Positions 25,619 through 48,908 of a stretch of DNA of 59,670 bases are shown in pieces. The position numbers and the translations under genes are program-made. The notes under the pieces were generated by a model. That model saw only the letters and a list, made by a program, of their open reading frames with translations, was not told the DNA's origin and did no database searches. Position 1 is the stretch's first letter. Each line of letters begins with the position of its first letter. Source of the DNA: Escherichia phage CAjan. The stretch lies in the sequence record KP064094. One strand, 5' to 3'.

Positions 25619-25682
25619 TTTGTATCTCCTCTTGTTGTATGCATATATTAAAACAGACCCGCGAAGGGTCTGCAAGTAGAAT

Positions 25683-27668
25683 TTAGGCGTATCCCATGTC
25701 TTCGAGATACTTCTCTGCTTTAGCTATATAAGCATCATAATCTATGTCGTCCGGTATTTTATCCGGTAGCGTCATGATCGGGACACCTCCCGCACTACCA
25801 GCTACACGGTTGCCCGAGTTGGCATAGATTATTTCAGGTGTTTCTTCATTAGTGCTTAAGTACCAGCGTACAACCTTACCCAAAAATTCGCCATTCCATA
25901 CCGCGCCACCTTTTACCGCACGTAGGATAATGAATTTTCTAATATCGTTGCAATTGCGTATAGTACGAGAAACAGGCGTACCGTGGGCCAAACATTCACA
26001 TACAGCTTCCATAATAATTTCACCAGTACAGTTCTTTTGAAGACCTGTCTTTGCGAACCAGCCTTTACGCTTGATTTCAACATTTCCTTCCTCGTCAGGT
26101 TCTTTTACTGCAACATAGTTATTGACGTTAGCACTGTACAGCTTGTCATAGTAGTTGGATTCCATTTCAAAACCTGTTACGGATTCCCACCACTTGATCA
26201 TATTATCAACGAAGTCCTGCATGTGGTCTGGATACTTAACCACAATGCCGTCCGTGTTAGCCGAAATTACTTTAACACCATTCAACTCAAATGCTTCAAT
26301 AAGCATCAACAGTGATAGCTGCCCTGTTAATGTAACTTGTATCAATAATTGCGGCGCGTAAAGGACAGACCACATAGACCCCAGCTTACCAAACGATCCG
26401 TTAATAACGATCTTCAGCGTGTTGGCTGTGTTCTTGTCTCCGCTGTGCTTAGCTGCAATACGGCGGTCTACAATACTTTTATAAACACGAAGGAACGCTG
26501 GTCCCAACTGTTCTGGATATAAGCCCTGATTAAGAATGATTGAAGGATAATAAGACGTTACGTCAATGTCCCGCTTTTTGATACCAGGCTCTTTACCGTG
26601 GCCAGCACACTCTTCGGAGCTATGTAAACCACCAATACCCATACGGTAGACACCGTCTGCAATCTTGATCTCAAGACCTGTTAATGCTGGAGGTAAGCTG
26701 ACACCACCGTTATCGCTAACAATAAAGCGACAGTCCCGAACAATATCCAGAACACTATTCATCAAAGGTGTTTGAAAACGAATAAAGTCCGGTATGTTGT
26801 ATGCATACTTTGTTCCAGGATAAACTTGCGGACGCTGTGGGCGCACGCCCGTTAACGCTTGGATTTCGTGCTTAATTACGTCTTCTGCAATCTGTGCATC
26901 GGAGCGTGAACGTAGATCCACACCGTATTCTTGCGACATAATTTCACGCAAGTGAATAGGCTCTTGCAATGCAATAAAACATTCTTCTGTTTGTACAAGG
27001 TCGTTAATACAGTACCAGCGTACAATTAACATCTGGTCCTGCGTTAACATGGTATTGGGTTTGAACGGTAAATCCTGCATACGTCGAGTATGTACACGTC
27101 CGCCGTATTGTTTCAAACCGCCGGACCCAGGCAGCACTTCCATGATATCAATGTGGTTAACGTTCTGCATACGCTTGAGACGGTAACTTTTCAATACATC
27201 CGAAGGACGCCAGTCTTCAACGATTATCTTATCGGTCGCGTCTTTAAGCTGCGCATTAGAACAGCCGTTAAGCGCAAGCGTAGCAATGGGCATATCGTAC
27301 CCGTTACCGTTAAAGCTCACGATAAGGAAGTTTGTCATCACCCAGTTAAGTAATAAGCAATTCAAACTACAACCGTGATACATCTCGAAGTAGACAACTT
27401 TCTTAGTCCTTACTCCGCGGAATGCAATCAAGAAGTAGTTTGGATAACATTCAATATCATATACAAGCGGTTCGCGGTTAATCCATGCTTGAATAAGTTC
27501 GTCCTGTGTGTACAGGTTGTATTGGAAGTTCCGCGCTTCCTCAAGATTAGGCAAATAATCCGGGCGCTCCCAAGTGCGCTCAGGCGGTAAACGTTTAACC
27601 TTTTCTTTCTTTGCTTTTGGCTCAGGCGGTAAGTCCTGCCAAAAGAAACCAATAGCATCTGTCCGCAT
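25683..27668 (-). CDS. DNA polymerase, family B
   Basis: about 662 aa from ATG 27668; family B motifs DVTSYYPSII (motif A), KIVINGSFGKLG (motif B), ANTDGIVV (motif C) and N-terminal YDIE exonuclease-like motif. Confidence 0.8.
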   Translation of the reverse strand: MRTDAIGFFWQDLPPEPKAKKEKVKRLPPERTWERPDYLPNLEEARNFQYNLYTQDELIQAWINREPLVYDIECYPNYFLIAFRGVRTKKVVYFEMYHGCSLNCLLLNWVMTNFLIVSFNGNGYDMPIATLALNGCSNAQLKDATDKIIVEDWRPSDVLKSYRLKRMQNVNHIDIMEVLPGSGGLKQYGGRVHTRRMQDLPFKPNTMLTQDQMLIVRWYCINDLVQTEECFIALQEPIHLREIMSQEYGVDLRSRSDAQIAEDVIKHEIQALTGVRPQRPQVYPGTKYAYNIPDFIRFQTPLMNSVLDIVRDCRFIVSDNGGVSLPPALTGLEIKIADGVYRMGIGGLHSSEECAGHGKEPGIKKRDIDVTSYYPSIILNQGLYPEQLGPAFLRVYKSIVDRRIAAKHSGDKNTANTLKIVINGSFGKLGSMWSVLYAPQLLIQVTLTGQLSLLMLIEAFELNGVKVISANTDGIVVKYPDHMQDFVDNMIKWWESVTGFEMESNYYDKLYSANVNNYVAVKEPDEEGNVEIKRKGWFAKTGLQKNCTGEIIMEAVCECLAHGTPVSRTIRNCNDIRKFIILRAVKGGAVWNGEFLGKVVRWYLSTNEETPEIIYANSGNRVAGSAGGVPIMTLPDKIPDDIDYDAYIAKAEKYLEDMGYA

Positions 27669-28621
27669 TAGACACGTTCTCCAATTAACACACCGCGAAG
27701 ATTTTCCCCAAAGAATGCGCAAGGTTGCGGATATAAACTAAAGTCCGCAGTCTTAACCACATTTTCGAGTAATAACAGGATGTCGATATTGTAAACTCCC
27801 GTTATTGATCTGTCCTGCAATACGAAGCTTGCACCTTCTGCATCATCGTAATGAGTACGCGCTAGACCGTTTTCAATATATACGCGAGGACGATCTTCCG
27901 CAAAAGGTTTAATTTTATGCAAGCCCTCAAAAAGACCTGGATCAACAGGATGTGCATTGCATTGAACATTTAAAATACGACGAATATCGGGCCACTCCGC
28001 ATCAATAAGCTGTGTTCGCAACCAGCGACCTTCCGGATAATGAAACGTCACATTGTTCTTGCTAACCTGAATATGTGTCGGGTTAGCTTTAATGCGCAGT
28101 ATTTCTTTAATAGCAACAGACGGTATTATGCAGTCAATAGGGAATTGATTACCAAACCAATATTCCGCAATGGTGACGTTATTTGTAGCAAACAGGCTAC
28201 CGTTATTAATTAGAATACCGCAAGCCCACGGGCGGGATGCATCTGAGCCTACAAACGGAGCAACGGACTTCACACCATGAACGAAGCGAGCCCCATCTAT
28301 TTCGTATAAATCACCTTCAGGGAATACGTGAGGTGTTTCCTTGTCAATGCAGCGTATAGCAACACGAAACGGTCCGGACTTGATATTAAGTTTACCGTTA
28401 GCCATCATTGTTAACTGTACGGTTTCGTCACAGTTTGAAATAGCTTTAATCATAGGTCCAGCTTCGGGCTTGCAATCAATATCCAGCTCAATAGGACTAC
28501 CCAGTGCAATAACACCGTTGAAGCCCTGTACCTGTCCATCACGGATAAGAAAGCTGGTAAGCCCTTCTACCAGTTCCTTCTTCGCTACGGAGCCTTGAAC
28601 AAATTTAAGAGCGTCTAACAT
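27668..28621 (-). CDS. DNA polymerase sliding clamp (beta-clamp/DnaN-like)
   Basis: 317 aa; resemblance to bacterial DnaN segments (IKSGPFRVAIRCIDKETPHVFP and QLIDAEWPDIRRIL, cf. DnaN LVDGRFPDYRRVL); immediately upstream of the polymerase. Confidence 0.6.
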   Translation of the reverse strand: MLDALKFVQGSVAKKELVEGLTSFLIRDGQVQGFNGVIALGSPIELDIDCKPEAGPMIKAISNCDETVQLTMMANGKLNIKSGPFRVAIRCIDKETPHVFPEGDLYEIDGARFVHGVKSVAPFVGSDASRPWACGILINNGSLFATNNVTIAEYWFGNQFPIDCIIPSVAIKEILRIKANPTHIQVSKNNVTFHYPEGRWLRTQLIDAEWPDIRRILNVQCNAHPVDPGLFEGLHKIKPFAEDRPRVYIENGLARTHYDDAEGASFVLQDRSITGVYNIDILLLLENVVKTADFSLYPQPCAFFGENLRGVLIGERV

Positions 28622-28848
28622 TAGCGATCCTCGATTGCTCTAATTGTGGTTAAATCTAATTCACAGGTTGGAGGGTATCCATAAAGTCCCATTTGTTTTC
28701 CTTGTGCATTAAACCATGTACCTGACGGATCCTGCCACTGCTTAGGTGTCTTGTGGAGAAATACTACTCTGTTTTCACCGTAATAATTAATTCTTACGCC
28801 TGTGTGAGTATATTTACGTTTACCTTTTGGTCTTCTTAAGTTAGCCAT
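28621..28848 (-). CDS. hypothetical protein
   Basis: 75-aa basic ORF, translationally coupled (TAATG). Confidence 0.4.
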   Translation of the reverse strand: MANLRRPKGKRKYTHTGVRINYYGENRVVFLHKTPKQWQDPSGTWFNAQGKQMGLYGYPPTCELDLTTIRAIEDR

Positions 28849-29768
28849 CAGAACAACTCCATTACACGATCACGGAATGTGCCGTCATGGGTAGCGTTAA
28901 TGTTTGCAGCAATTACACCATAAGCCCATAAATTGAAGGCAGCACGTGATTCATAGATTGTTGATAAACGTTCGTAAGTGAAACCGTTTTGCTCAAGGTA
29001 TTTAAGGACAGCGTCTTGTTCAATTTCAGTTAATGTTGAAACATGCTTACCAAAATGATGGCGGTCCGGTGACTTATCTGATACGCGCATTGGTCCCCAC
29101 GGAGGGGTAACCACACTTCCAAACGCTGCTGCTTGAATCCAGGAGGATGAGTCGCAGCTATACCACGGATAACGTTCCATGATGGTTGTTGACGTAATAC
29201 CAAACGCATGAAGTTTAATCTTAGCACGTCCGCTACCGTCGCAAATATATTTGTCCCACATGCGGTCAAGCCAAGTCTTAAGCGTGTCCGTGGAACGTCC
29301 TACCATACCCCCGATAGTGATATATTCGTAGTTCTTCATGTAGTATTCAAGATAGCGGAAGTCCTCCCCAAAGTGAAAGCAAGGTAACGGTTTAGCACCG
29401 CGTGCTTCCATTTCAAGTTGGTTACGGTAGGTTTGCAACGGATCACCGATACCATCGAGCACCGACGCCATTACTGCGCCATCTTCTACGCGAAGGATGT
29501 CTTTGTTGCGCTTGATGTATTCGCAGTATTCAACAATATCAATGTGAGCACCTAACGAGTGCGCGGAGAATGCACCGGAGTCGAGAAACACTTTAGCTCC
29601 ATCCGCACGCATCTGATCAACATACTTTTGACGTCCAACGTAGTGGTATGATTCCAAAATATGGGGCAGATTGCGCGTGATATTTTTCTCATGCTCAGAC
29701 AGCTTTTCATAACGCTGCTGTCCAGGCATATATCCGTTCGTGTAAACTGCTGCCATAAAAACGTTCAT
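28848..29768 (-). CDS. dpdA: DpdA-like DNA 7-deazaguanine transglycosylase (TGT superfamily)
   Basis: 306 aa with FLDSGAFS, analogous to the DSGGFQ motif of tRNA-guanine transglycosylases; adjacent to FolE/QueD/QueC/QueE genes. Confidence 0.65.
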   Translation of the reverse strand: MNVFMAAVYTNGYMPGQQRYEKLSEHEKNITRNLPHILESYHYVGRQKYVDQMRADGAKVFLDSGAFSAHSLGAHIDIVEYCEYIKRNKDILRVEDGAVMASVLDGIGDPLQTYRNQLEMEARGAKPLPCFHFGEDFRYLEYYMKNYEYITIGGMVGRSTDTLKTWLDRMWDKYICDGSGRAKIKLHAFGITSTTIMERYPWYSCDSSSWIQAAAFGSVVTPPWGPMRVSDKSPDRHHFGKHVSTLTEIEQDAVLKYLEQNGFTYERLSTIYESRAAFNLWAYGVIAANINATHDGTFRDRVMELF

Positions 29769-29971
29769 TTTTGGAACGGTCCTCCAAACTGATCAATTAG
29801 TTCTAAAGTACGCCACACTTCATTAAATGCTTCGTCCGCTTGATGTTTAGCGTCAATAAGCTGCTGCTTTAAGACATTTGTAGGAGCATCATTCTGTATC
29901 GCAGAGCAAGCATCCGCAGTACCTGCTTTAAGCTTGTAGAATGCAGCTTCTAAAATTAATTGTCTTGACAT
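29765..29971 (-). CDS. hypothetical protein
   Basis: 68 aa from ATG 29971; start uncertain (track gives 29998). Confidence 0.35.
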   Translation of the reverse strand: MSRQLILEAAFYKLKAGTADACSAIQNDAPTNVLKQQLIDAKHQADEAFNEVWRTLELIDQFGGPFQK

Positions 29972-30042
29972 ATTTCCCCCAATGACTAAAAAGCCCATAC
30001 CAGTATTATGACCGATATGGGCTTGATCTGTAAAGCTATCTA

Positions 30043-30633
30043 TTATTTACAAGCTTCAAGGAACTCCCGGCGCCATTCTTTACCAATATCGCTACCATGC
30101 TCCAGTTCTGTAGCGCCCCGGAACGCTTTGGTAATAGTAGAGCTTCCGCATACCTGCTTGACGCCACGACTTTCCATGCACATATGCTTGGCGTCAATAT
30201 AAACACATACAGCTTTCGGGTTTAAATGCTCCTGAATAGCGTCTGCAATCTGGTTAGTAAGACGTTCCTGAACTTGCAGTCGACGACTAAAAGCATCCAC
30301 AACGCGAGACAGCTTACTAAGCCCAACGATCTTCCCATTGGGGACATAACCCACAACAGCACGCCCGATAATAGGAGCCATGTGATGCTCACAATGACTG
30401 TATACAGGAATATCACGGACAATGACCATTTCATCCGCACCTTCCGCACCATCTTCAAAGGTTTTAAACAATCCAGCGATATCTACATCGTAACCGCTGA
30501 ACCACGTTGCATAAGCTTTCGCTACACGCTCCGGAGTTTCCATCAACCCATCACGCAGACCTTCTTCTGCTTTTACGCCTTCAATCTGACGCAGGATAGA
30601 AATAATATTCGCTTCGAGTATTGTTTTATTCAT
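30043..30633 (-). CDS. folE: GTP cyclohydrolase I
   Basis: 196 aa with HCEHHMAPI zinc-binding active-site motif of GTP cyclohydrolase I. Confidence 0.85.
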   Translation of the reverse strand: MNKTILEANIISILRQIEGVKAEEGLRDGLMETPERVAKAYATWFSGYDVDIAGLFKTFEDGAEGADEMVIVRDIPVYSHCEHHMAPIIGRAVVGYVPNGKIVGLSKLSRVVDAFSRRLQVQERLTNQIADAIQEHLNPKAVCVYIDAKHMCMESRGVKQVCGSSTITKAFRGATELEHGSDIGKEWRREFLEACK

Positions 30634-30669
30634 GGTTTGCAGTTTCCTTGTTTGTTAATGTGGTCATAC

Positions 30670-31191
30670 TTACAGGCTATAATTTACGTGACATTTCAAA
30701 GTTTCTTCGATGGTGCATTCTACAAGTTGAACACCATGCTCGTCAAGCAGTTGCGGCCCAATTACTTCAACCATGTATGCAGCTAAGTTTTCCGCAGTTG
30801 GGTTGAACGGTAGAGCTACCAGTGAATCAACGAAATGTGAGTGCTCTTCTTCTGTAATATAACCTTCACTTTCATCCGCTAAAACATCACGAAGACCGAT
30901 AAGTAAGTGATCTTTTTCCCAATGCAGGAACTTATGATCCCAGTTATCTTCCAGCCACTGGCAAAGCGTAGTTTTAACCACACTGAAGTCGATAACACGA
31001 CCAACACTGTCCAGGCCTCCTTCTAGCGTCAGTTTACCGCACGTAATCTTTTTAACATCCGTGCGACCTTTCGGGGCAACCTTAAAGTGAAACTTATAGT
31101 TATGTCCGTGAAGATGTCGACATTTGCTTTCATGTCCTACAACACGGTGCCCAGCGCAAATTTCATGTGAACGGATCACTGTATAGCTCAT
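30670..31191 (-). CDS. queD: 6-carboxy-5,6,7,8-tetrahydropterin synthase
   Basis: 173 aa with CxxHGH-type motif (CRHLHGHNY) and second His/Glu region typical of QueD/PTPS family. Confidence 0.85.
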   Translation of the reverse strand: MSYTVIRSHEICAGHRVVGHESKCRHLHGHNYKFHFKVAPKGRTDVKKITCGKLTLEGGLDSVGRVIDFSVVKTTLCQWLEDNWDHKFLHWEKDHLLIGLRDVLADESEGYITEEEHSHFVDSLVALPFNPTAENLAAYMVEVIGPQLLDEHGVQLVECTIEETLKCHVNYSL

Positions 31192-31192
31192 T

Positions 31193-31516
31193 TTATTCTC
31201 CTAACTCTGCTTTAACCGCTGCTTCGATATCTTCAAGGGCTTTAAGTTCATGAGTATAGTAACTCATATCATCTGGTTCAGTCGACTCTTCGTGCATGGT
31301 TTCTAATGCTTGACGCCATATAGCTATGTGACCTTTAATCATACATGCAAGCGAACTATGACCTTTGTAAACTGCTTTGTCCACTTGCATCTGTGGGTTG
31401 AATTGCACAATAGCATCTTCAACAAGATCAATCAGATCATATGCTTGTTGAGGGACTGGGTTTCCAAATGCTTTATGAGCTATACCCATTCTTGCTAAAT
31501 TACTTATCCTATTCAT
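31193..31516 (-). CDS. hypothetical protein embedded in the deazaguanine cluster
   Basis: 107 aa, SD AAGGAG; no recognised motif. Confidence 0.45.
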   Translation of the reverse strand: MNRISNLARMGIAHKAFGNPVPQQAYDLIDLVEDAIVQFNPQMQVDKAVYKGHSSLACMIKGHIAIWRQALETMHEESTEPDDMSYYTHELKALEDIEAAVKAELGE

Positions 31517-32082
31517 TTCGATACTCCTTTCGATTGTTCAATTTCTAACGCACGCTGTGCGGACGCAATAATGTCTTTTAAGTCTTCTACCAGACTTTTA
31601 TGCCCGCGCTCACCGGGTTGCAATGCTTTTTTGATAAGGTGTTGCAGAGCTGGGTTCGTTGTTTCCCAGGCGGTAAGAACATCATACACATCTACAACAA
31701 TTGAAGCAACATGCCCGTCAATATCTTTACCGCGGATAAGGCGCTGGTATTTGGTCAGACGGTTATCTTCAGGATAGCTCTGGTAACGCGCTTCTGGAAC
31801 CGTCATTGCAATTTCCATCACTTCTTTAAACTTGTGCTCGGTTATTGGGTCTTTGCTGGTCATTTGTTGATTAATTGGCTCTTCAATGATGTAACGCCAA
31901 GCAGTCACATCAAATTGTGTGGTCATTGGGATTGGCGAATATGACCATATCCAACCAGCTCCGCGATGGTTTCTTAAAACGTTACCATTTCTTAGTTTCA
32001 CTTCAAAATGGTCATTCTGAAGATAGACGGGCATCCCTTTGCCGTCGTGTTTGTGCCAAATTTTATCCAGATTATCTTTCAT
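31513..32082 (-). CDS. hypothetical protein embedded in the deazaguanine cluster
   Basis: about 189 aa from ATG 32082 (track start 32121 is TTG); no recognised motif. Confidence 0.45.
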   Translation of the reverse strand: MKDNLDKIWHKHDGKGMPVYLQNDHFEVKLRNGNVLRNHRGAGWIWSYSPIPMTTQFDVTAWRYIIEEPINQQMTSKDPITEHKFKEVMEIAMTVPEARYQSYPEDNRLTKYQRLIRGKDIDGHVASIVVDVYDVLTAWETTNPALQHLIKKALQPGERGHKSLVEDLKDIIASAQRALEIEQSKGVSK

Positions 32083-32083
32083 T

Positions 32084-32563
32084 TTATGCTCTCGCTGTAC
32101 GTGAATGAACTTCGTAAACAACCCAAAGGATAGCTGATGCTGTGAACTTACTTAAGCTCATTGCTACCATCGATCCCGGATTTACAATACCAATAATACT
32201 TAAGAATACAATGGAGTCAATTGGTACTGCGACCAAAGAGCTGATAAATACTCGTTGATGGAAAGGCTTCTTGGTGACCGTGTATACCACATAGTCAGCA
32301 AACTCGCTAAGTGCAAATGACGCAACGGATGCAACTACAACCGCAGGATCCCCGAACACCCAGCTAAGAATGCAACCGACAATCATTGCAGGGATAACGC
32401 CTTTGCCAGCGTTACGCTGTGCGTAGTCACGCAGGACGAAGATAATACCTACGAAGAAAGCCATCATGGGTACTACGCCAAGCGGCGTGTTAAGCATTGG
32501 AAGGTAGGAAAAGCCCAGGTTTACGAACGTAATTGCAGCCAGGTAAGCAACGATAAATTTCAT
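32084..32563 (-). CDS. integral membrane protein, possible 7-deazaguanine precursor transporter
   Basis: 159 aa, 4-5 hydrophobic helices, SD GGAGA; location inside a queuosine-precursor cluster suggests a YhhQ/QueT-like role (inference). Confidence 0.4.
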   Translation of the reverse strand: MKFIVAYLAAITFVNLGFSYLPMLNTPLGVVPMMAFFVGIIFVLRDYAQRNAGKGVIPAMIVGCILSWVFGDPAVVVASVASFALSEFADYVVYTVTKKPFHQRVFISSLVAVPIDSIVFLSIIGIVNPGSMVAMSLSKFTASAILWVVYEVHSRTARA

Positions 32564-32683
32564 ACTTTTGTTCTCCAGTTTTAACAGCGTTATTCGCTGG
32601 TTGTTGGGTTTAAAAGCTTTAGTAGTATAGTTGGGTTACCGCACCCTAAACAATGCGCTAGCGGTGCGGTTTTCGCGGTAAGA

Positions 32684-33406
32684 TCAAACGTGTTTGCTGT
32701 AAGCGTTATCCATAAATTCAGTGTAACCCTTAGCACGGAGTTTACACGCTGGGCATTCCCCGCAACCGTATCCCCAGTCATGCAAAGTTCGACGAATGCC
32801 GTTATAGCAGGTGTGCGACTGTTCAATAACTGTGGTTAAGAAACCAACCTTGTCCGCCAGCTCAAACGTTTCAGCTTTGTTTAAACGCATAAGTGGGGTA
32901 ACAAAATGAATATCTGTTTCATATCCAACGTTTAAGGTAGCTTCAAGCAAATCAACAAACTGCTGACGGCAATCCGGATAACCGCTATAGTCCGTTTCAC
33001 ATACGCCTGTAACCACATATCGGGCTCCGACCTTCTGCGCGTAAGCGTGCGCGGTTGTCAGAAAAAGCGCATTACGATTTGGCACAAAACTTGCCGGAAG
33101 GTTATTGTGCTGTTCGTGATGCTCGTTGACATCACCTTCGTTCCCGATCAAAGCGCTATTACCAATCTGTTTCAAAGCTGGTAATTCGAAGACAACAAAC
33201 GGGACATTGTGCTCTTTACAAATTTGATTAGCACAAGCCAGCTCAATGTTATGACGTTGACCGTATGCAAAACCAATAGCGTAAACTTTATCATAGTTAT
33301 TAAGCGCAAGACCTAGACAAGTCACGCTGTCCTGACCGCCAGACAGGACCACAACGGCGGAGTTATGATTTTTTACAGGGAACACCAGTTTATCTAATTT
33401 ATTCAT
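32684..33406 (-). CDS. queC: 7-cyano-7-deazaguanine (preQ0) synthase
   Basis: 240 aa with PP-loop SGGQDS and C-terminal zinc-binding cysteines (CYNG...CGECPACKLR); no fused amidotransferase domain. Confidence 0.85.
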   Translation of the reverse strand: MNKLDKLVFPVKNHNSAVVVLSGGQDSVTCLGLALNNYDKVYAIGFAYGQRHNIELACANQICKEHNVPFVVFELPALKQIGNSALIGNEGDVNEHHEQHNNLPASFVPNRNALFLTTAHAYAQKVGARYVVTGVCETDYSGYPDCRQQFVDLLEATLNVGYETDIHFVTPLMRLNKAETFELADKVGFLTTVIEQSHTCYNGIRRTLHDWGYGCGECPACKLRAKGYTEFMDNAYSKHV

Positions 33407-33407
33407 T

Positions 33408-33596
33408 TTAGAAACCTTTAAGGCTAATATTAAGGTTAACGACTACTTGTTCAACTACATCTTCACAGGTCACCTGACGCTTGTGAATTTCAAGTTCCGA
33501 ATATATTTTCTTTGAAGCTGCGCGACATAGGGCGTCATTCAATTCGTCTTGTAGACGTTGAATCTTGTGCATAAGCACTACAGTTTCTTCATTCAT
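33408..33596 (-). CDS. hypothetical small protein
   Basis: 62 aa from ATG 33596 with SD AAGGTG. Confidence 0.35.
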   Translation of the reverse strand: MNEETVVLMHKIQRLQDELNDALCRAASKKIYSELEIHKRQVTCEDVVEQVVVNLNISLKGF

Positions 33597-33801
33597 TTTC
33601 CACACCTTTAATATAACAAGGGTTGATTGTTACATTTGACATTACAATTGGATGATTACGTGCTCCAATTGTACTAACGTGATTAATATCTAATTCTACA
33701 TGCACACCCTGCATAGTAGCATGGGCAATTGCAGAATTAAGTTTTTCTACCAGCTCAGTAATCATTTCCTGATGCTGTTTTGCTTCTTCTAAAGTGATCA
33801 T
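33589..33801 (-). CDS. hypothetical small protein
   Basis: 70 aa; TAATG-coupled to queE. Confidence 0.4.
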   Translation of the reverse strand: MITLEEAKQHQEMITELVEKLNSAIAHATMQGVHVELDINHVSTIGARNHPIVMSNVTINPCYIKGVENE

Positions 33802-34508
33802 TATTCTACCCCAATATATTTGTGAACCTGAAGCTGCAACGTGTAACCGTGTTTCATACAGCTTTGGACAACGGCTTGGATGTTACTGTGGTTAAGATCT
33901 TCATCCTGCTCGTCCATTGGCTGTAAATATATCTTACCCTTGAAACCCTTCGGAGGTCTAGCGATAAATGGCGTAGCTTGATGATCTAATGCCTGAAGCG
34001 GCAAACCATCTTCCACGTTTACACAGCACGCTTTAAGTACATATTTAAATGCATTAGCGCGGCGCAGCACAGAAGGATGAATCTTTGAGGTCTTGGGACT
34101 ACATACAATTACAGGTAACTGGGAAAAGTTCTTAGGTAAAGGCATAGACCCATTAGTTTCAATTTGCACCAAATACCCGCGCGATAACAGTTGTTCAATA
34201 AACGGGTTAATTTGCTGACGGAACGGTTCGCCCCCAGTGATAACCACAAGTGAGGTGCTATTGCCGGATTCCAGCTTACGGCTTTCGATTAAACGCATAA
34301 TATCGACAATGTGATAAAGACTACGACCAACAGTATAATCTGTATCACAGCCAGGGCATTGCAGATTACACCCAGCAAGACGCACAAATACAGCAGGTTG
34401 GCCGCAGAATGGACCTTCACCCTGAATGGTAGAGAATACCGAATGCACGTCTAAATACATATCGTTTTCTTTAGAACGGGACTCGGGAGCTTGTTGATTA
34501 ATATTCAT
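33801..34508 (-). CDS. queE: 7-carboxy-7-deazaguanine synthase (radical SAM)
   Basis: 235 aa with CNLQCPGC (CxxxCxxC radical SAM cluster motif) and QueE-like length; SD AGAGGA. Confidence 0.85.
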   Translation of the reverse strand: MNINQQAPESRSKENDMYLDVHSVFSTIQGEGPFCGQPAVFVRLAGCNLQCPGCDTDYTVGRSLYHIVDIMRLIESRKLESGNSTSLVVITGGEPFRQQINPFIEQLLSRGYLVQIETNGSMPLPKNFSQLPVIVCSPKTSKIHPSVLRRANAFKYVLKACCVNVEDGLPLQALDHQATPFIARPPKGFKGKIYLQPMDEQDEDLNHSNIQAVVQSCMKHGYTLQLQVHKYIGVE

Positions 34509-36062: not shown

Positions 36063-38039
36063 TTAGAACGGAACGTAATCCGGATCTTCTACTTGTACAG
36101 GGTTAACCACATTGTTTACCGTTATACCTTGCGTATTCTGCGAAACAATATCGTCCCAGCTTACATCATCGTTATAGCTCGGACCTTCTGTTGTTCCATC
36201 CTGCCCGTATACTTTAACCTGAATAGCTTCGTCGTCCTGTGGAGCTTCAAACTTACCGAAACAAGTACCATCATAATCATAGTTCAATATCTCAGGCCAT
36301 TTCTTATTGGTATGAACTTTGATGTATTTTGGTGTTTTAAGCATTGCAGCAACATCAAGGGCTTCTTCAATAGTTTGTGGTAAAGGTAAATGTGTCCTTT
36401 TCTTCCACCATGCCACCGCTTTACGACCCGCCCAGTCCCCATGAAGCAGAGCTACCCATTCACTGAATATTTTACTACCGCAATAATAAGTCACCTTCAT
36501 TGTTGGAGGTTTAGAGCTGTCATTGCGTTTAGTGTGCTTCGCATAAGTAACATGCGTAACTTTAAAGTCTTCAACTACTGGAATATCCTGCTTGATCAGG
36601 GCTTCCGTACTTGCAGCTTTCTTGAGTTTGGTCTGGAACTTAAACTCATGGCCGCAAAAGCCTTCTTTAACGTAATCCGTCCCGCGTAGCCTAAAACCTT
36701 TCAGATATAATTGTTGAACTTGTTCCTGTGTGACGCTGTCCATTGGGATTGGTGCGAAGCCACCGCAATAGCGAGCGGATGCATGATTATACGACCCACA
36801 TACATCGCATTCTTTAACCGGAGCAGTGCCAGCACCTTTTTCGCCCGGGCGCTTGGGTTTAACAGGGTCGTTAATAGGGCCCAAACGGCGCGTATTACCG
36901 CTGAAATCCAGTACAAGGCAGTTCTGCTTGGGGCTTGCCGCAATAGCTTGTAAGCGTCCCTCCTGCGTGGAAAGATCAAAGCCCTCCGCGTACACCGGAC
37001 GCGTACCGCGACCCAGCATCTGAACCCATAGCACCGCCGACGCAGTGGGACGGAGCATGATAATTAAGTCCAGCATTGGATGATCAAAACCTGTGGTTAA
37101 GACGTTGTTGTTCGTTAATGCTCGAAATTCACCGCGCTTGAATTTTTCAATAATCTCGTCACGTTCTTTTGCATCAAGCTTAGAGTGAATACATCCACAG
37201 CTAATACCCATATCGTTCAGCATATCACACGCGTCTTTAGCGTGTTCAATGCCAGAACAAAATATAAGCCAGCTTTGACGGTCTTCACCACATTCAATCG
37301 CTTCCTCAAGTGCGCGGAGTGTTGCGTCATCGCGGTTTACCGCACTTTGCAGCTCACTCTGGATAAACTCACCGCCGCGTTTACCTACCCCGTTGAGGTC
37401 CAGCTCCATCTTAGTACGCTTTGGCACAACCGGAAGAAGATAACCTTGTTCCAGAAACCAGTTGAAGGCTTCCGGAGTAGTTGCATCAAACGTTACCTTA
37501 TCAAATAACGCATCATCGTCTTCGTTTTCCTTAACAATTGAACCATACCCCAGTCGATAAGGTGTAGCAGTAAGACCGATGATTTTTAAGTAAGGGTTAA
37601 CTTCACGCAACGCTGCAAAGAACTTCTTATACATTGTTGCATCACGCGGACTAATAAGATGCGCTTCGTCCACAAAAATAAGATCAACTTTGCCGAACTT
37701 TTTCGGATGCTTAGCAACGGACGCAATCCCTGCAAAGGTAATAAGATTGTAGACTTCTTTACGCTTCAAACCCGCGCTGTAAATACCTGCTGGCGCTTCG
37801 GGCCAGACTTTCATTAATTTATCATAGTTTTGTGCAATTAACTCTTTGACGTGAGTTAACATCATTACGCGCTGGTTTGGATACCATTTGTAAAGCAGAT
37901 CGAGGAACCCCGCGATAACGAGCGATTTTCCTGTCCCTGTTGGTAACAGGATCAAAGGGTTCCCCGCGTTACCCTTTTCAGCATCAAAATAGCGGAATAC
38001 GCTATAAACTGCTTCCTGTTGATAATCGCGGAGTTGCAT
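36063..38039 (-). CDS. superfamily II DNA helicase (DEAH-box)
   Basis: 658 aa; Walker A LLPTGTGKS, Walker B VDEAH, motif III TATP, motif VI QMLGRGTR; C-terminal extension with Cys cluster. Confidence 0.8.
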   Translation of the reverse strand: MQLRDYQQEAVYSVFRYFDAEKGNAGNPLILLPTGTGKSLVIAGFLDLLYKWYPNQRVMMLTHVKELIAQNYDKLMKVWPEAPAGIYSAGLKRKEVYNLITFAGIASVAKHPKKFGKVDLIFVDEAHLISPRDATMYKKFFAALREVNPYLKIIGLTATPYRLGYGSIVKENEDDDALFDKVTFDATTPEAFNWFLEQGYLLPVVPKRTKMELDLNGVGKRGGEFIQSELQSAVNRDDATLRALEEAIECGEDRQSWLIFCSGIEHAKDACDMLNDMGISCGCIHSKLDAKERDEIIEKFKRGEFRALTNNNVLTTGFDHPMLDLIIMLRPTASAVLWVQMLGRGTRPVYAEGFDLSTQEGRLQAIAASPKQNCLVLDFSGNTRRLGPINDPVKPKRPGEKGAGTAPVKECDVCGSYNHASARYCGGFAPIPMDSVTQEQVQQLYLKGFRLRGTDYVKEGFCGHEFKFQTKLKKAASTEALIKQDIPVVEDFKVTHVTYAKHTKRNDSSKPPTMKVTYYCGSKIFSEWVALLHGDWAGRKAVAWWKKRTHLPLPQTIEEALDVAAMLKTPKYIKVHTNKKWPEILNYDYDGTCFGKFEAPQDDEAIQVKVYGQDGTTEGPSYNDDVSWDDIVSQNTQGITVNNVVNPVQVEDPDYVPF

Positions 38040-39014: not shown

Positions 39015-39902
39015 TTACTGCTGCCACGGCGGGACTGCTGCTTGTGCCGGATGCGGTTCAGCTTGCTGCTGGGGCTGAGCTTGCTGCTGAGGTGCTGCTG
39101 CCTGGCCCGGCTGTGCTACCTGCTGCGCCCACGGCTGCTGAGCTGCTTCCTGTGCTACTGGCTGTTGTACCGGAGCTTGCTGCACTGGCTGCTGTGGTGC
39201 TGCGTTTTGAGCAGGATTATCCCACGGCTGCGGTGCGGCATTCTGCCACGGTTGTGCTGCTGCGCCCTGCTGTGGTGCTGGTTGCTGCTGCACAGGCTGC
39301 TGAACTGGCTGCTGTTGCTGCACCGGAGCTTGCTGCTGTACAGGCGCTTGCTGTTGCTGTGCAAACGGGTTAGCTGCTGGTTGCTGAGGTGCTGCGCCCG
39401 GGAAAGCTGGCTGCTGTGCTGGCGCACCTGCACCGAACGGGTTAGCTACTGCCGCTTGAGCACCCATTGCTGGAGCACCTGCTTCTTTTTCTGCATACTT
39501 AACCGGATCGTTGATGTTAGCATAACCGTTAGGCTCGTTGCTGTCTTCATAACCTTCCTGAGAACGAACTTTCAGACGCAGGTTCAGCGGAATGTTATGC
39601 AGTTGAGCAGGAGTATCCCAGCGAATTACGCCAACCGCATGGGAAAGCGCGCCCAGTTGTTCGTATGCAATACGCACAGTATCTTCGTTGTCGTTGATAA
39701 CGTTGTAACGAGCAAAGATTTTACGACCTTTAGCAAAACCATCAATGATGCTAAACGTTACCTGGATCGCCATACCGCCATTTTTGGTCGGTTTAAATTC
39801 AGATGCTTCAATTACTGCTTTATACCAACCTTTCGGCAATGCGCCGTAAGAAGGTGCTTGATAGCTGCTCGCGTCAAAGTGGAAATTAGTTGGCATAGTC
39901 AT
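39015..39902 (-). CDS. putative ssDNA-binding protein (DUF669-like) with Q/A/P-rich low-complexity tail
   Basis: 295 aa; globular N-terminal about 110 aa, then a long Gln/Ala/Pro-rich tail encoded by CTG/CAG-rich DNA; next to AAA ATPase as in Sak4-type recombination modules. Confidence 0.45.
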   Translation of the reverse strand: MTMPTNFHFDASSYQAPSYGALPKGWYKAVIEASEFKPTKNGGMAIQVTFSIIDGFAKGRKIFARYNVINDNEDTVRIAYEQLGALSHAVGVIRWDTPAQLHNIPLNLRLKVRSQEGYEDSNEPNGYANINDPVKYAEKEAGAPAMGAQAAVANPFGAGAPAQQPAFPGAAPQQPAANPFAQQQQAPVQQQAPVQQQQPVQQPVQQQPAPQQGAAAQPWQNAAPQPWDNPAQNAAPQQPVQQAPVQQPVAQEAAQQPWAQQVAQPGQAAAPQQQAQPQQQAEPHPAQAAVPPWQQ

Positions 39903-40630
39903 TAGTTAATACCTTTCATTTTGTTGATAACAGAACCTAAGTGTGGGACTTCAACCGCATCTAAACGTCCCGAACGATCCTTAGCGATTGTATTAAAGTC
40001 CGGTTGAGTTTGCAAGTAACGATACGAGTTACCTTGCTGATCCTTATTTACATTCAGACGAAATACTTCGTCGAAGAAGTAAGGGAGCATTTGCCCCAAT
40101 TTGGACCCAGGCATAGATGGAGCATACGCGGTAACACCGGAGACTTCATCTTTGTCTTTGCCCATTTTAGCAGACATATAAACATGTTTGCCAGGAATAT
40201 CGCGAAACTTACGGATCAGATCTTGCATCTTTTCAAGCAAAGTACCATAAGCTTGACGAGGATCTTTCGTTCCCTTTTTCGCGTTGTTTAAACATTGTTC
40301 AGCAATTTCGCTCAAGCTGTCAAGTGCAATAGAATCGAAATACTGCTGGTTAGCTGGAGTTACACACCACTGATAAGCCGCTTCAACGTCTTCCAGACAT
40401 TTCACTTCAATTACCGGAATATCGTAGACGATGGGCAAACCCATGTTACCATAAACACGGTTAAGGTTTTCCGCTGCAATAGACAACAGACCGGATTCTG
40501 CGCTGATTAAAATTGGTTTAGGTAGTGTGGCTACAAGGCTGGTTTTACCCATACCTGCTTCACCGTAAACCAGAATTTTAACACCTGTGTCCTGCACAAC
40601 TTGTGAAGACATTTTAATTTCAATGGCCAT
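39902..40630 (-). CDS. AAA ATPase (Sak4/RecA-like recombination ATPase)
   Basis: 242 aa; Walker A GEAGMGKTS near N-terminus and Walker B-like hydrophobic-D segment. Confidence 0.6.
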   Translation of the reverse strand: MAIEIKMSSQVVQDTGVKILVYGEAGMGKTSLVATLPKPILISAESGLLSIAAENLNRVYGNMGLPIVYDIPVIEVKCLEDVEAAYQWCVTPANQQYFDSIALDSLSEIAEQCLNNAKKGTKDPRQAYGTLLEKMQDLIRKFRDIPGKHVYMSAKMGKDKDEVSGVTAYAPSMPGSKLGQMLPYFFDEVFRLNVNKDQQGNSYRYLQTQPDFNTIAKDRSGRLDAVEVPHLGSVINKMKGIN

Positions 40631-46543: not shown

Positions 46544-46567
46544 AAAGGGCCAAATGGCCCTTTATTT
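46544..46567. terminator. bidirectional terminator
   Basis: AAAGGGCC-AAAT-GGCCCTTTATTT between convergent genes 46315-46539 (+) and 46566-48908 (-). Confidence 0.6.
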
Positions 46568-48908
46568 ATTCCTCTTCTCCTAAGTTTGCCATAATACCTT
46601 CAACATCTTGCGTAATGCGCCAAGCCGCGCCAGTGAATCCCAGTTTGATAGTCTCCTCCCGTGTTACCGGAACAAGGGCACCCATAGCAACCATCTCTTT
46701 GATTGTAGACTCAATTGCTGCGGACAATCCGTGGTGATAGTTTTTAAACGCGGACTTACTTGCAAGACGAGTAGTAATATCACCCCGCGTGATAATACCT
46801 TCTTTACGCAGATCTACACGTTTAACTTTCACCCAATCTTTAGTTAGATAATTCACACAAACCTGGCACATAGTACGGATACGAGCTTCGTCATTAGTAC
46901 CGATACCCCCACTATGCCATTCCTTCATAATGATATCCTGTCCATGACGCACAAAGTCCAAGGCCCATTGAACATGATAGGTCTGCACAACCGGATTGAT
47001 CCAGTTTTCTCCCACAGCTAACAGGGCGGATAGACGTAACACCTTCAGGTGCGCACGGTTCCACGGCTGGCGGATTGCTTCGTCTTTGGTTGCGTTAATA
47101 TTACGGTCGCATTCGTCGTTAAACTGATCACATAATGCTTCCGCATCCGGGCTAAACTGCACTTCAATACTTTGATGCTTTGCCATTGCGACTAAGGTGT
47201 GGTTAACAAGATGACACACCATATCCCGCAAATGCTGATCCATTGTAGTCTGCTGGTTCTTGTTTAAAGGTGGTCGATCCCCTTCATAGCGGACAACATG
47301 GAAACGGGATAAGAAACCATCCTCCATCATTTCACGCGTCAACGCTTCAAAAAACGTGTCCGGTGTCGTTTCGCCCATGATGCTATAGGCCACACCTTGT
47401 TGAGCTTCCGTATTATTAGCCTTATCAGAATAAGACATACCACCAACAATAGACATCTGACCGGACTTTTGATAAATATCGGTAAGGTCATTCTTGAAGC
47501 TTTGCATTGGTGAACCTGCTGGCGCCGTTGCCATTGCTTTAATAATCTTACCAAACTCACCGTTCAAGTTGATAAAAGATTGTTTGTCCGCAAAAGATTT
47601 ACGCAGTGCGGAGCCGGAAGCGCATCGGTCAAAGGATACAAAGCTATGAATCTGCGGAAACGGTTCCTGAAGCTGGCTAACTATATTAGATAGCCCACTG
47701 TTCAACGTTTCTTTACCAACACCAGAACGAGCAATAAGGACGAAATATCCATTAAGACCCGATTGCGGAATCTGCCAGACCTTCCCGCATACCCCAGCCA
47801 TAAAGCCTAGCGCTGTCACAATAGAAATTTCTTTCACTGGTCGGACGGAGGCTTTATAGATGTATTTCGCAAGCTCCCCAGCAAGCCCCGGCGGCCAGTC
47901 AATAGCGGTTGCATCAATAGATGTACTTTCTGCAACTACTGTCTGCCCCTGTGTTGTTTCAACAGTTACGGGCATTTCCGCTACCTGCTGCATTGCACTG
48001 TGTGCCGCTTGCATACGGGCAGCATAATCCCGCGCCAGCGCCGCTACGTTTTCCTGGGCAATGCGCTCACGCTCCATGCGACCGCGACACATACGCAAGC
48101 AACGGTCAATATGAACATTGTTCTTATTAGCCTTCTCACGTTTGCCCAGCGCACTATAACGGAACAGACGGCGACATTGCTCATTACTTTCCGTGTAGAA
48201 TGCATACATAGAGATAAGGGCAAGGTCTGCTTCAGACTGGGAAGGGAATCCCATTTCAACCCATTCACCGTTAAATAACCGTGCATACTTATCGCCGTTA
48301 TCCGCTTCAAGTGCACGCTGATGAATAGTTGCATCATCTTCTACCGGATCTTTTTCTACCAGTTCAATTTCATATGTCTTGCGCTGAAGATCAATTTCAT
48401 TCACAAGCATAGTAAGGTAATGATCACGTTCTGCAACTGGTTTGTTGTAGACGGGATTGCCCGTGCAGATAATAAAACGCTCCTGACTATAAACCTCGAC
48501 ACCATCACGTCGACGACCTTTACCGATGTTACCTCTTAACCACAGGTGGACACCCAGGCCTGAGCGACTTACTTCGGTGTAAGTATCGAACGCAGTCATG
48601 ATCTGTTCGAAGCGGCGCAACTGCTCTGGCGTCGTGTGCTTCTTGGGATCAGGTTCATTGGTTGCGTTCTTCACATCCAGGTCGATGCAGGTGAACGGGT
48701 CTTGTGCAGTAAGCACGAATCCAATATAAGGTTTATTAAAATGAGCGGCGCAACCTTTGGCAGCTTCAAACGTCATAAGCATATCCGGATCGGTAACGTC
48801 CGCCGCCATCAAACGTCCAATATCGCTATCCCATACCAACGGCTTTTTATCCGCATCGGCCACCGCCCATTGTGGGAAAGCTTTAATTTCAGCGGGAAAC
48901 AGTTCCAT
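46566..48908 (-). CDS. primase-helicase (archaeo-eukaryotic primase-type domain fused to P-loop NTPase-like domain)
   Basis: 780 aa; N-terminal AEP-like motifs (CIDLDV, SGLGVHLW) and central P-loop-like SGVGKETLNSG. Confidence 0.6.
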   Translation of the reverse strand: MELFPAEIKAFPQWAVADADKKPLVWDSDIGRLMAADVTDPDMLMTFEAAKGCAAHFNKPYIGFVLTAQDPFTCIDLDVKNATNEPDPKKHTTPEQLRRFEQIMTAFDTYTEVSRSGLGVHLWLRGNIGKGRRRDGVEVYSQERFIICTGNPVYNKPVAERDHYLTMLVNEIDLQRKTYEIELVEKDPVEDDATIHQRALEADNGDKYARLFNGEWVEMGFPSQSEADLALISMYAFYTESNEQCRRLFRYSALGKREKANKNNVHIDRCLRMCRGRMERERIAQENVAALARDYAARMQAAHSAMQQVAEMPVTVETTQGQTVVAESTSIDATAIDWPPGLAGELAKYIYKASVRPVKEISIVTALGFMAGVCGKVWQIPQSGLNGYFVLIARSGVGKETLNSGLSNIVSQLQEPFPQIHSFVSFDRCASGSALRKSFADKQSFINLNGEFGKIIKAMATAPAGSPMQSFKNDLTDIYQKSGQMSIVGGMSYSDKANNTEAQQGVAYSIMGETTPDTFFEALTREMMEDGFLSRFHVVRYEGDRPPLNKNQQTTMDQHLRDMVCHLVNHTLVAMAKHQSIEVQFSPDAEALCDQFNDECDRNINATKDEAIRQPWNRAHLKVLRLSALLAVGENWINPVVQTYHVQWALDFVRHGQDIIMKEWHSGGIGTNDEARIRTMCQVCVNYLTKDWVKVKRVDLRKEGIITRGDITTRLASKSAFKNYHHGLSAAIESTIKEMVAMGALVPVTREETIKLGFTGAAWRITQDVEGIMANLGEEE

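Follow-up and report, generated by a model that had tools for sequence, protein, structure and literature searches.

A family B DNA polymerase and a beta-type sliding clamp encoded side by side in Escherichia phage CAjan, with candidate clamp-binding motifs in the polymerase and in DpdA

DNA enzymes that work bound to a clamp include eukaryotic DNMT1, which uses a PIP-box with PCNA, and bacterial MutS and MutL with beta; the phage T4 clamp also serves other clients, its late transcription factors. Phage-encoded homologues of PolIII-beta that come without a loader have been discussed before by Kazlauskas and Venclovas, whose surveys left open whether such clamps use the host loader or form no ring at all (PMC3201878, PMC4889955). 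The Rhc protein of phage PhiKZ joins one clamp-like domain to RNase H (PMC13648687). Phage CAjan, a Seuratvirus, requires DpdA for the insertion of dPreQ0 into its DNA (PMC6884629).

We analysed a window of 59,670 nucleotides from Escherichia phage CAjan (record KP064094), by which we mean the whole stretch of DNA; it is a Seuratvirus (Queuovirinae) genome with 94-97% identity to published E. coli phages. The best overall explanation of the locus described below, to which we give a probability of roughly 0.7, is a Seuratvirus replicase in which a host-loaded ring clamp tethers the polymerase and probably DpdA.

Gene order and identity of the clamp and polymerase

The clamp and polymerase genes are the last two in a coupled string, dpdA-orf75-clamp-polymerase, in which every stop codon overlaps the next ATG (Table 1). 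The clamp ORF runs from an ATG at 28621 to a TAA at 27670-27668, and this stop codon overlaps the polymerase ATG at 27668 in the sequence TAATG. The same ATG is the polymerase start in relatives (KurtStettler CDS) and yields 661 residues; in the program-made list of open reading frames the polymerase ORF spans 25683-27722, from a TTG. The small gene orf75 is translationally coupled on both sides through TGATG and TAATG stop/start overlaps. Its product belongs to PHROG 38388, of unknown function, and is limited to Seuratvirus-level relatives; as it was seen in only 2 of 80 related loci, we rejected it as a conserved partner and place it outside the conserved module. The hairpin that follows the polymerase gene, a pattern match from a consensus scan only, has an 8-bp stem with five GC pairs and then a T-rich tail.

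Table 1. Positions of the features discussed, in coordinates of the window
Feature	Position	Strand	Remarks
Intrinsic-terminator-like hairpin	25653..25673	(-)	directly after polymerase stop codon
Family B DNA polymerase gene	25683..27668	(-)	661 aa + stop; compact, proofreading-proficient
Polymerase catalytic motifs A, B, C	26238..26564	(-)	invariant columns
Motif C, ANTDGIVV	26238-26261	(-)	residues 470-477
Motif B, KIVINGSFGKLG	26379-26414	(-)	residues 419-430
Motif A, DVTSYYPSII	26535-26564	(-)	residues 369-378
Candidate clamp-binding motif, D-A-I-G-F-F-W-Q-D	27633..27659	(-)	polymerase residues 4-12, N-terminal tail
Beta-type (DnaN-fold) sliding clamp gene	27668..28621	(-)	317 aa + stop
Clamp C-terminal strand, LRGVLIGERV	27671..27700	(-)	family consensus RGAIIGMR
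Clamp segment QLIDAEWPDIRRIL	27971-28012	(-)	clamp residues 204-217
orf75, small basic ORF	28621..28848	(-)	75 aa; between dpdA and clamp
dpdA (7-deazaguanine DNA transglycosylase)	28848..29768	(-)	first gene of coupled string
DpdA tail, R-V-M-E-L-F-stop	28851..28868	(-)	candidate second clamp-binding motif

Single-sequence and Pfam searches alone were too weak for either protein family, and assignment was decided by profiles and structure prediction. The polymerase, a compact enzyme of family B whose 3'-5' exonuclease is intact, matched PHROG 1252 at 2e-228, and its profile matched S. solfataricus PolB1 (7.6e-8) and E. coli Pol II (1e-5) in the PDB. A Foldseek search with its AlphaFold model (pLDDT 91.4) returned archaeal PolB, E. 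coli Pol II and Pol alpha with E values of 6e-15 to 2e-12 and a probability of 1.0, over approximately 720-750 aligned columns; TM scores were only 0.35-0.48, low values that are expected for a multi-domain enzyme with mobile domains. Exonuclease motifs, located with the consensus DxE (Exo I), Nx2-3[FY]D (Exo II) and Yx3D (Exo III), were invariant in 50 homologues as D71-I-E73, N120-GNGY-D125 and Y219-CIN-D223, respectively. Polymerase motifs A, B and C were read against DxxSLYPS, KxxxNSxYG and DTD. Motif C reads S-A-N-T-D-G, in which the second aspartate, the catalytic D473, is kept and the first is replaced by an invariant asparagine (N471); judged by sequence, this NTD is a variant of the family B consensus. 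Membership in the PolB_SITDG group of cyanobacteria and algae was rejected on the same SANTDG reading, and the main text of a PolB classification (PMC7544198) makes no mention of the phage group of CAjan. The curated Pfam models DNA_pol_B and DNA_pol_B_exo gave no match to the polymerase, and DNA_pol_B_exo2 aligned only below threshold (E 0.03; 14.4 bits against a cut-off of 24). Since the profile matches to PolBs in the PDB were significant, we attribute the Pfam result to divergence and not to a missing defining feature.

The upstream protein matched PHROG 947, 'DNA polymerase processivity factor', at 5e-82. Its AlphaFold model (pLDDT 93.9), whose secondary structure repeats three times, matched bacterial beta clamps over their full length (E 1.6e-20, TM 0.82-0.85), and beta clamps made up all of the best 50 Foldseek matches; the predicted structure thus confirms a full three-domain beta-clamp protomer. 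Sequence similarity was far weaker. Identity to E. coli beta is approximately 15%, and among the Pfam models DNA_pol3_beta, _2 and _3 none matched above threshold, the central-domain model DNA_pol3_beta_2 alone aligning (1.7e-4; 22.3 bits, below the cut-off of 27). Against PDB sequences the best E value was 0.01 with the single sequence and 1.8e-4 with a profile (D. radiodurans beta), while a profile search of 1.84 billion representatives collected 2,896 proteins. These sub-threshold Pfam scores, weak PDB E values and few profile matches place the clamp family, as far as sequence comparison goes, in a separate phage-borne branch of the beta fold and not among DnaN orthologues.

These results agree with much of an earlier note on this DNA, made from the sequence alone, which had proposed a family B polymerase with a DnaN-like protein encoded just upstream: all the peptides it quoted, from the polymerase and from the clamp (QLIDAEWPDIRRIL), are present, and its DnaN-like segment LVDGRFPDYRRVL is the stretch that HMMER aligned to E. 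coli beta residues 183-255. Its further view, that the two form an unusual replisome composition, goes too far. The pair is annotated in at least 30 near-identical phage records, under the names DNA polymerase B and DNA polymerase beta subunit or processivity factor. Members of the clamp family were counted in 360 of 50,697 phage records, and the family has approximately 2,900 cluster representatives. Of the 77 polymerase loci whose upstream DNA could be read, 73 carry the clamp gene immediately upstream in the same orientation, and this order was also found in distant GenBank phages (BcepGomr, RHEph04, Synechococcus Yong-L2-223 and Kopi). Cells, too, offer a precedent for the pairing: E. coli Pol II belongs to family B, works with beta and ends in QLGLF. 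The gene pair itself is ordinary for this phage group, and its possible weight lies in the mechanism; no experimental study of the clamp family was found in the literature searched.

Candidate clamp-binding motifs in the polymerase and in DpdA

Beta-binding pentapeptides of the QL[SD]LF type lie in flexible linkers or termini and have hydrophobic residues at positions 2 and 4 and phenylalanine at position 5. A search of the polymerase for a clamp-binding motif, a check proposed in the earlier note, returned a strong candidate that is new here, D-A-I-G-F-F-W: A5-I-G-F-F9, followed by W10, fits the pentapeptide pattern within residues 1-20, which are predicted to be disordered (pLDDT 47-60). In 50 homologues R2, D4, G7, F9, W10 and D12 are invariant, with a mean column identity of 54%, and the variants include ALGLF. 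The motif resembles the C-terminus of E. coli Pol II, which we checked to be QLGLF.

The motif also follows the clamp gene. G-[FLMI..]-F-W is found at the N-terminus of 68 of 73 clamp-linked polymerases, and four that lack it end instead in EKQLKFF, KQIGLF, EQITFF or LGPLFA. Four polymerase homologues are clamp-less, defined as no clamp match at E<0.1, and carry neither the N-terminal nor the C-terminal motif. Fisher's exact test gave p of approximately 4e-6 to 7e-7 for the association before allowing for shared ancestry; the compared loci come from related phages and cannot be counted as separate events, and the clamp-less polymerases, four in all, may represent one or two clades. This lack of phylogenetic independence leaves room for a reading in which the N-terminal tail binds some other partner, such as the primase-helicase or SSB, and the link to the clamp reflects shared ancestry only. 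In favour of this reading, the tail also has a second conserved element, PPERTWERPDYLPGL at residues 28-42. We nevertheless regard this explanation as highly improbable, since four lineages trade the N-terminal motif for a C-terminal beta-binding pentapeptide (QIGLF, QITFF, QLKFF), an exchange that another partner would hardly account for, and MSFLFDSF likewise opens a family A polymerase whose partner is a distant clamp-family member.

A second candidate was found at the C-terminus of DpdA, which matched PHROG 887 at 8e-96 and is annotated as DpdA in KurtStettler. The consensus tail of 61 clamp-linked DpdAs is R-[VI]-Q-E-L-F-COOH, with leucine in 60 and phenylalanine in 59; it is kept across 50 distinct last-eight-residue tails and at an overall identity of 24-25%. 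Among 3,922 ORFs, DpdA was the sole large family with such a C-terminus. Relative to the canonical Q-L-x-L-F register, [VI]-Q-E-L-F is shifted by one position. Six annotated GenBank DpdAs served as clamp-less controls, and none has the tail (6/6), although all six belong to a different, ParB-linked clade (actinobacterial and Cellulophaga phages), so that its absence could be a trait of that clade and not an effect of the missing clamp. An IMG/VR search for further clamp-less DpdAs with the Cellulophaga phiSM query found nothing, and four high-GC loci from the mycobacteriophage query were left out because their overlapping multi-frame stop-to-stop ORFs made the C-termini unreliable. The primase-helicase (46566-48908), which starts with MELF much as DpdA ends, was considered as a third clamp client and rejected: across 120 homologues MELF is not a conserved terminal motif, and its phenylalanine belongs to a [FLI]-P-x-E-[LM]-[KR]...QW element at a varying distance from the start.

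The DpdA tail suggests, at slightly less than even odds in our estimate, that the phage clamp is a hub on which DpdA would ride through its C-terminal peptide, physically coupling 7-deazaguanine hypermodification to the replication fork. No link between a DpdA-type transglycosylase and a phage-encoded bacterial-type clamp was found in the literature searched. If true, the link would be the bacterial-virus equivalent of maintenance methylation coupled to PCNA; it would explain the inheritance of dpdA, clamp and polymerase as a coupled block across Queuovirinae and related phages, as well as the post-replicative exchange of approximately one-third of all guanines before packaging, and would give a means to engineer or block anti-restriction DNA modification.

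The peptides of the polymerase and DpdA might instead dock on host beta, leaving the phage clamp another role, for example in competing with host clamp clients or taking over host forks. Both motifs resemble canonical bacterial beta-binding motifs, and host beta and its loader are always available. The tails, however, track the adjacent phage clamp gene, though all the hosts have beta; the clamp gene is translationally coupled to that of the polymerase, and the extra tryptophan specific to the polymerase family (G-F-F-W) suggests co-adaptation to a diverged cleft. Together these make docking on host beta improbable, and binding to the phage clamp remains our preferred reading.

The clamp cleft, ring formation and loading

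The C-terminal strand of the clamp aligned to VVMPMRL of E. coli beta in an hhalign global alignment, and R309, G310 and G314 of this strand are invariant; the C-termini of 73 family members were also compared. The E. coli segment is one that, from published structures, we take to line the peptide-binding cleft. By profile alignment only, with an alignment probability of 88%, E. coli T172, P242, R246, V247 and V360-R365 correspond to T146, P211, R215, I216 and V311-R316 of the clamp, and many of the residues so aligned are invariant in the phage family.

In agreement with the earlier note, no clamp loader was found, either by PHROG and Pfam scans of approximately 25 ORFs (all large ORFs of the replication module) or by a Walker A scan, which among real genes detected only the terminase and a Sak4-like AAA_24 ATPase. 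The latter, at 39902-40630, was considered as a loader and rejected as Sak4/RecA-like. With no encoded loader, the clamp could be a loader-independent processivity factor that forms no closed ring and, as a monomer or an open dimer, binds DNA directly alongside the polymerase, like UL42/UL44 and PhiKZ Rhc. Loaders accompany fewer than half of the viral processivity factors, and such non-ring solutions are known (PMC4889955; PMC3201878; PhiKZ Rhc, PMC13648687); the protomer is approximately 50 residues shorter than cellular beta (317 versus 366 aa). Against this, all three domains of the protomer can be superposed on beta clamps that form rings, and the C-terminal cleft strand and the ATxx and WPD motifs are conserved as in ring clamps. 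The clamp is also acidic (pI 5.56, net charge -7; family median pI 5.6; E. coli beta pI 5.25), where loader-less non-ring factors are markedly basic by the pI criterion of PMC3201878. We consider a non-ring clamp unlikely.

In the favoured ring reading, the clamp would form a DnaN-like head-to-tail dimer around duplex DNA, and the polymerase would be held by the QLxLF-type peptide A-I-G-F-F-W on its flexible N-terminal tail, which would enter the conserved cleft separating domains II and III of the clamp. DpdA would probably dock in the same cleft through its terminal ...V-M-E-L-F and, swapping guanine for preQ0, would ride the clamp left behind on freshly made DNA. The combination of no phage AAA+ loader with an acidic clamp like ring clamps makes opening and loading by the host DnaX (gamma/tau) complex most likely. 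With approximately 15% identity to E. coli beta and sub-threshold Pfam scores, recognition of the clamp by the E. coli delta subunit nonetheless appears far from assured. How phage bacterial-type clamps work without a loader was the question left by the 2011 and 2016 surveys, and the motifs offer short, defined peptides and point mutations for clamp-polymerase docking, host-loader dependence and DpdA tethering, in easily handled E. coli phages (CAjan, Seurat and the BASEL phages).

Comparison with known systems

E. coli Pol II with beta resembles the CAjan pair in its family B polymerase with 3'-5' exonuclease, its three-domain beta-type clamp and its terminal QLxLF-type peptide, predicted here for the phage enzyme; Pol II was also among the sequence and fold matches to the phage polymerase. 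In contrast to that system, the CAjan clamp is phage-encoded, approximately 15% identical to E. coli beta and 317 residues long, and the motif is N-terminal in most members of the phage family and C-terminal in Pol II. The phage polymerase is also shorter (661 versus 783 aa), with NTD for DTD in motif C. As the one polymerase that the phage encodes, it is presumably the replicase, whereas Pol II is a repair or translesion enzyme.

T4 and RB69, with gp43 and gp45, likewise have a phage family B replicase, their own clamp and a short terminal docking peptide (a candidate in CAjan). Their gp45, however, is a two-domain, PCNA-like trimer with its own gp44/62 loader, whereas CAjan has a three-domain protomer and no loader. 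The phage PolIII-beta homologues (PMC3201878, PMC4889955) are similarly phage-encoded, bacterial-type clamps, many without a loader. Among these, the loader-less clamp of Bacillus phage 0305phi8-36 has a raised pI and was read as non-ring, in contrast to the acidic CAjan family, and in RSL1 and Ma-LMM01 the partners of the clamp are a polymerase of family A and a gamma-like subunit. HSV UL42, CMV UL44 and PhiKZ Rhc are also polymerase accessory subunits of clamp ancestry and work without a loader; proteins of this type bind DNA through a basic face, as monomers or C-shaped dimers, whereas the CAjan clamp has three domains and a net negative charge.

In Rosemountvirus (Salmonella phage BP63), the gene directly upstream of the polymerase encodes a distant relative within the clamp family (E 2e-29 against its profile), and the polymerase N-terminus, MSFLFDSF, is also hydrophobic and aromatic. 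That polymerase belongs to family A (Pfam DNA_pol_A, 7e-63) and is unrelated to the CAjan enzyme, and BP63 has no DpdA. Finally, if DpdA does ride on the clamp, its delivery to newly made DNA would be analogous to that of DNMT1 by PCNA and of MutS and MutL by beta; the client would differ in being a base-exchanging transglycosylase that installs 7-deazaguanine, and the clamp in being bacterial-type and phage-encoded.

A family B polymerase and a beta-type clamp in one gene string

The earlier note had proposed a family B DNA polymerase paired with a bacterial beta-clamp-like protein encoded just upstream, and both open reading frames and every peptide quoted for them were found on the minus strand. 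The polymerase gave a sole, sub-threshold Pfam match (DNA_pol_B_exo2) and matched PHROG 1252 ('DNA polymerase') at 2e-228. In a PDB search, a profile of 50 homologues recovered S. solfataricus PolB1 (7.6e-8), E. coli Pol II (1e-5) and Pol alpha. When its AlphaFold model (pLDDT 91.4) was used for a fold search, every hit of probability 1.0 was a family B polymerase (E-values down to 6e-15). Exo I, II and III and motifs A and B were invariant across the 50 homologues, as was Asn N471, which replaces the first Asp of the usual DTD in motif C. The polymerase is a compact, proofreading-proficient and divergent member of family B.

The upstream product has the fold of a bacterial beta clamp. It matched PHROG 947 ('DNA polymerase processivity factor') at 5e-82; the central beta-clamp domain of Pfam scored 22.3 bits, below the cut-off of 27, and sequence matches to PDB beta clamps were weak (0.01 with the single sequence, 1.8e-4 with a profile). 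Its model was very confident (pLDDT 93.9), and the best 50 PDB fold matches were all bacterial beta clamps, which aligned from end to end (TM 0.82-0.85, about 15% identity).

A 4.8-kb stretch surrounding the two genes shares, along its entire length, 94-97% identity with more than 30 published Escherichia phages (Seuratvirus, Queuovirinae), including SLUR75, Skure, KurtStettler, Greed and slur01. Their records label the polymerase 'DNA polymerase B' or 'DNA polymerase elongation subunit' and the clamp 'DNA polymerase beta subunit' or 'DNA polymerase processivity factor'; the pairing is therefore already known at the level of annotation. The polymerase ATG used in these relatives overlaps the clamp stop codon as TAATG, with GGAG about 10 nucleotides upstream, and one-base overlaps also join dpdA, encoding a 7-deazaguanine DNA transglycosylase, to orf75 (TGATG) and orf75 to the clamp (TAATG). 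Thus dpdA, orf75, clamp and polymerase form one translationally coupled string. A terminator-like hairpin lies 10 nucleotides past the polymerase stop codon, a position consistent with the end of a transcription unit. The small orf75 is confined to Seuratvirus-level relatives (2 of 80 loci).

Features of the polymerase/clamp region and of other replication and modification genes
Feature	Position	Strand	Remarks
Terminator-like hairpin	25653-25673	minus	8-bp stem with 5 GC pairs, T-rich tail; pattern match only
Polymerase ORF	listed from TTG 27722; ATG 27668 in annotated relatives	minus	661 aa from ATG
Polymerase motif C	26238-26261	minus	S-A-N-T-D-G
Second conserved polymerase element	27543-27587	minus	PPERTWERPDYLPGL, residues 28-42
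Clamp-like gene	28621 to 27668	minus	ORF, 317 aa
orf75	28621-28848	minus	75 aa, basic; PHROG 38388, function unknown; stop/start overlaps on both sides
preQ0/7-deazaguanine gene set	28848-34508	minus	complete: dpdA, folE, queD, YhhQ-like transporter, queC, queE; just upstream of clamp
SF2 helicase	36063-38039	minus	C-terminus ...VEDPDYVPF, resembling the acidic tip of bacterial SSB
Primase-helicase	46566-48908	minus	780 aa; PHROG 3022; homologues with PF22763 and PF13148
Candidate docking peptide, polymerase			N-terminal MRTDAIGFFWQDL
Candidate docking peptide, DpdA			C-terminal FRDRVMELF

Probable ring character and host loading of the clamp

The main alternative is that the clamp needs no loader and does not form a ring, like the factors of herpesviruses or PhiKZ (PMC13648687). 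Loader-independent clamp homologues tend to be basic and ring clamps acidic (Kazlauskas and Venclovas, PMC3201878). With a pI of 5.56 and a net charge of -7, the CAjan clamp is acidic, as are its family (median pI 5.6) and E. coli beta (5.25), and by this criterion it looks like a ring clamp; its charge and its complete three-domain fold make a non-ring factor less likely. We infer that the clamp forms a dimeric ring.

As the earlier note had stated, no clamp loader was identified. When the replication module was scanned with PHROG and Pfam, no AAA+ clamp loader turned up; the scans identified an SF2 helicase, a Cas4-like exonuclease, a DUF669 SSB, a Sak4-like AAA_24 protein, an ATP-dependent ligase, RNase H, dUTPase, RusA and the primase-helicase. 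A Walker A scan across the whole window recovered, among real genes, only terminase and Sak4. The host DnaX complex would load the clamp. Bacterial SSB has an acidic tip ending in ...DDDIPF, which the helicase C-terminus resembles. The clamp of Septimatrevirus phage Kopi (L083:3452-4627) ends in ...SDDIPF and is extended at its N-terminus by 46 Lys/Arg-rich residues, and VAPDDIPF ends one clamp from IMG/VR. An SSB-like tip could attract host proteins that interact with SSB, among them the clamp-loader subunit chi. Among the early and replication genes of CAjan there is also an HNH endonuclease gene (50970-51452, minus strand; PHROG 99 at 1e-62), which may be a mobile homing element.

Terminal motifs of the polymerase and DpdA

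The earlier note had called for a search of the polymerase for a clamp-binding motif, and this yielded a candidate in its N-terminal tail. Residues 1-12 (M-R-x-D-A-x-G-F-F-W-x-D) hold six invariant positions in an alignment with a mean column identity of 54%, and in the model disorder is predicted only for residues 1-20 (pLDDT 47-60); invariance within predicted disorder is a pattern typical of short linear docking motifs. The core A-I-G-F-F (A-L-G-L-F in some homologues) closely resembles QLGLF, the C-terminal beta-binding pentapeptide of E. coli Pol II. A Lys-rich linker parts the motif from the second, strongly conserved element (pLDDT ~80-87), which precedes the exonuclease domain.

Six-frame ORFs from 80 polymerase loci in IMG/VR were searched with clamp and polymerase profiles. 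Three loci end at a contig edge; in 73 of the 77 scored, the clamp gene was directly upstream on the same strand. Of these clamp-linked polymerases, 68 carried N-terminal G-[FLMIVWY]-[FW]-[WD] and one more the variant S-L-L-W-D-E. The remaining four lacked the N-terminal motif and ended in ...EKQLKFF, ...KQIGLF, ...EQITFF and ...LGPLFA, the first three being textbook beta-binding motifs, C-terminal as in Pol II, and the last only loosely alike. Four polymerases are clamp-less: a profile search of the 6 kb to each side detected no clamp at E<0.1. They start 50-65 residues later and have neither an N- nor a C-terminal motif. The association of motif with clamp gave a Fisher p of ~1e-6, a value that treats related loci as if they were independent; more telling is that the motif has moved to the opposite terminus. 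Distant GenBank phages agree (BcepGomr MRFDSDGLFWQE, RHEph04 MSRWDTTGLFWDD and Synechococcus phage Yong-L2-223 MPRWDNVGLFWQD).

A global profile alignment of the clamp with E. coli DnaN (probability 88%) paired T172, P242, R246, V247 and V360-R365 of DnaN with T146, P211, R215, I216 and V311-R316, and several of the aligned clamp residues are invariant in the phage family. In published structures these DnaN residues line the client-binding cleft. The polymerase N-terminal motif would dock in the corresponding cleft between clamp domains II and III.

DpdA is a second candidate client. A DpdA homologue adjoins the clamp in 61 of the 80 loci, always with [LFM][FY] in its last nine residues (61/61) and ending exactly in LF in 44; the CAjan protein ends in ...R-V-M-E-L-F. 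The tail consensus R-[VI]-Q-E-L-F-COOH (L 60/61, F 59/61, Q 38/61, E 39/61) is shifted one position relative to QLxLF. There were 50 distinct last-8 sequences, residues immediately before the tail were variable, and the tail was kept in DpdAs with just 24-25% overall identity (QPALFDL, QPTLFDL, ESLFGF). In an unbiased scan of 3,922 ORFs from clamp loci for C-terminal [LFMI]F, one large homologous family emerged, DpdA (56 loci), the next relevant group being the four polymerases with C-terminal motifs. Clamp-linked DpdAs from GenBank agree (BcepGomr ...EQQGLFV, RHEph04 ...REQRLF, Yong-L2-223 ...DPVLF). LF-type tails were absent from six GenBank DpdAs without an adjacent clamp (Mycobacterium Tinciduntsolum, Gordonia Sour, Rhodococcus Finch, Microbacterium Megan, Arthrobacter Mufasa8 and Cellulophaga phiSM), all of a different, ParB-linked DpdA clade. 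The primase-helicase also carries MELF, the last residues of DpdA, at its N-terminus; this terminal motif was not conserved in its homologues.

The terminal tails might instead dock on host beta, a reading hard to square with the lack of such tails in every case where the phage clamp is missing. On docking to the phage clamp, DpdA would attach through its C-terminal tail. Deazaguanine genes of Queuovirinae adjoin polymerase genes (PMC10484667), and in Seuratvirus CAjan DpdA is essential for dPreQ0 insertion, with ~32% of G modified (PMC6884629). The gene set, in which no amidotransferase was apparent, likewise predicts dPreQ0-modified DNA. The literature searched contained no mechanistic link between DpdA and a clamp; a clamp-tethered DpdA is a lead to which we give roughly even odds.

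Spread of the clamp family and known counterparts

The clamp family was detected by tblastn in 360 of 50,697 phage records, among them Queuovirinae, PaMx25-like and Septimatrevirus Pseudomonas phages, and phages of Stenotrophomonas, Xanthomonas, Vibrio, Rhizobium and Burkholderia. Among 1.84 billion cluster representatives, a profile search returned 2,896 proteins, 858 of them below 1e-30, and over 100 phage models resembling beta clamps are present in BFVD. By sequence comparison, the family is large and well separated from cellular DnaN. In Rosemountvirus BP63, a Salmonella phage, a distant member is the immediate upstream neighbour of a family A polymerase (L084:4902-7864; Pfam DNA_pol_A 7e-63; N-terminus MSFLFDSF) unrelated to that of CAjan. 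The clamp is therefore a portable module that pairs with either polymerase family and is not tied to PolB.

The motif analysis adds a concrete, testable mechanism for clamp docking to a polymerase/clamp pair that is itself known and of modest interest. The suggestion that the composition is unusual is not supported: the pair is already annotated, is widespread and has cellular precedent.
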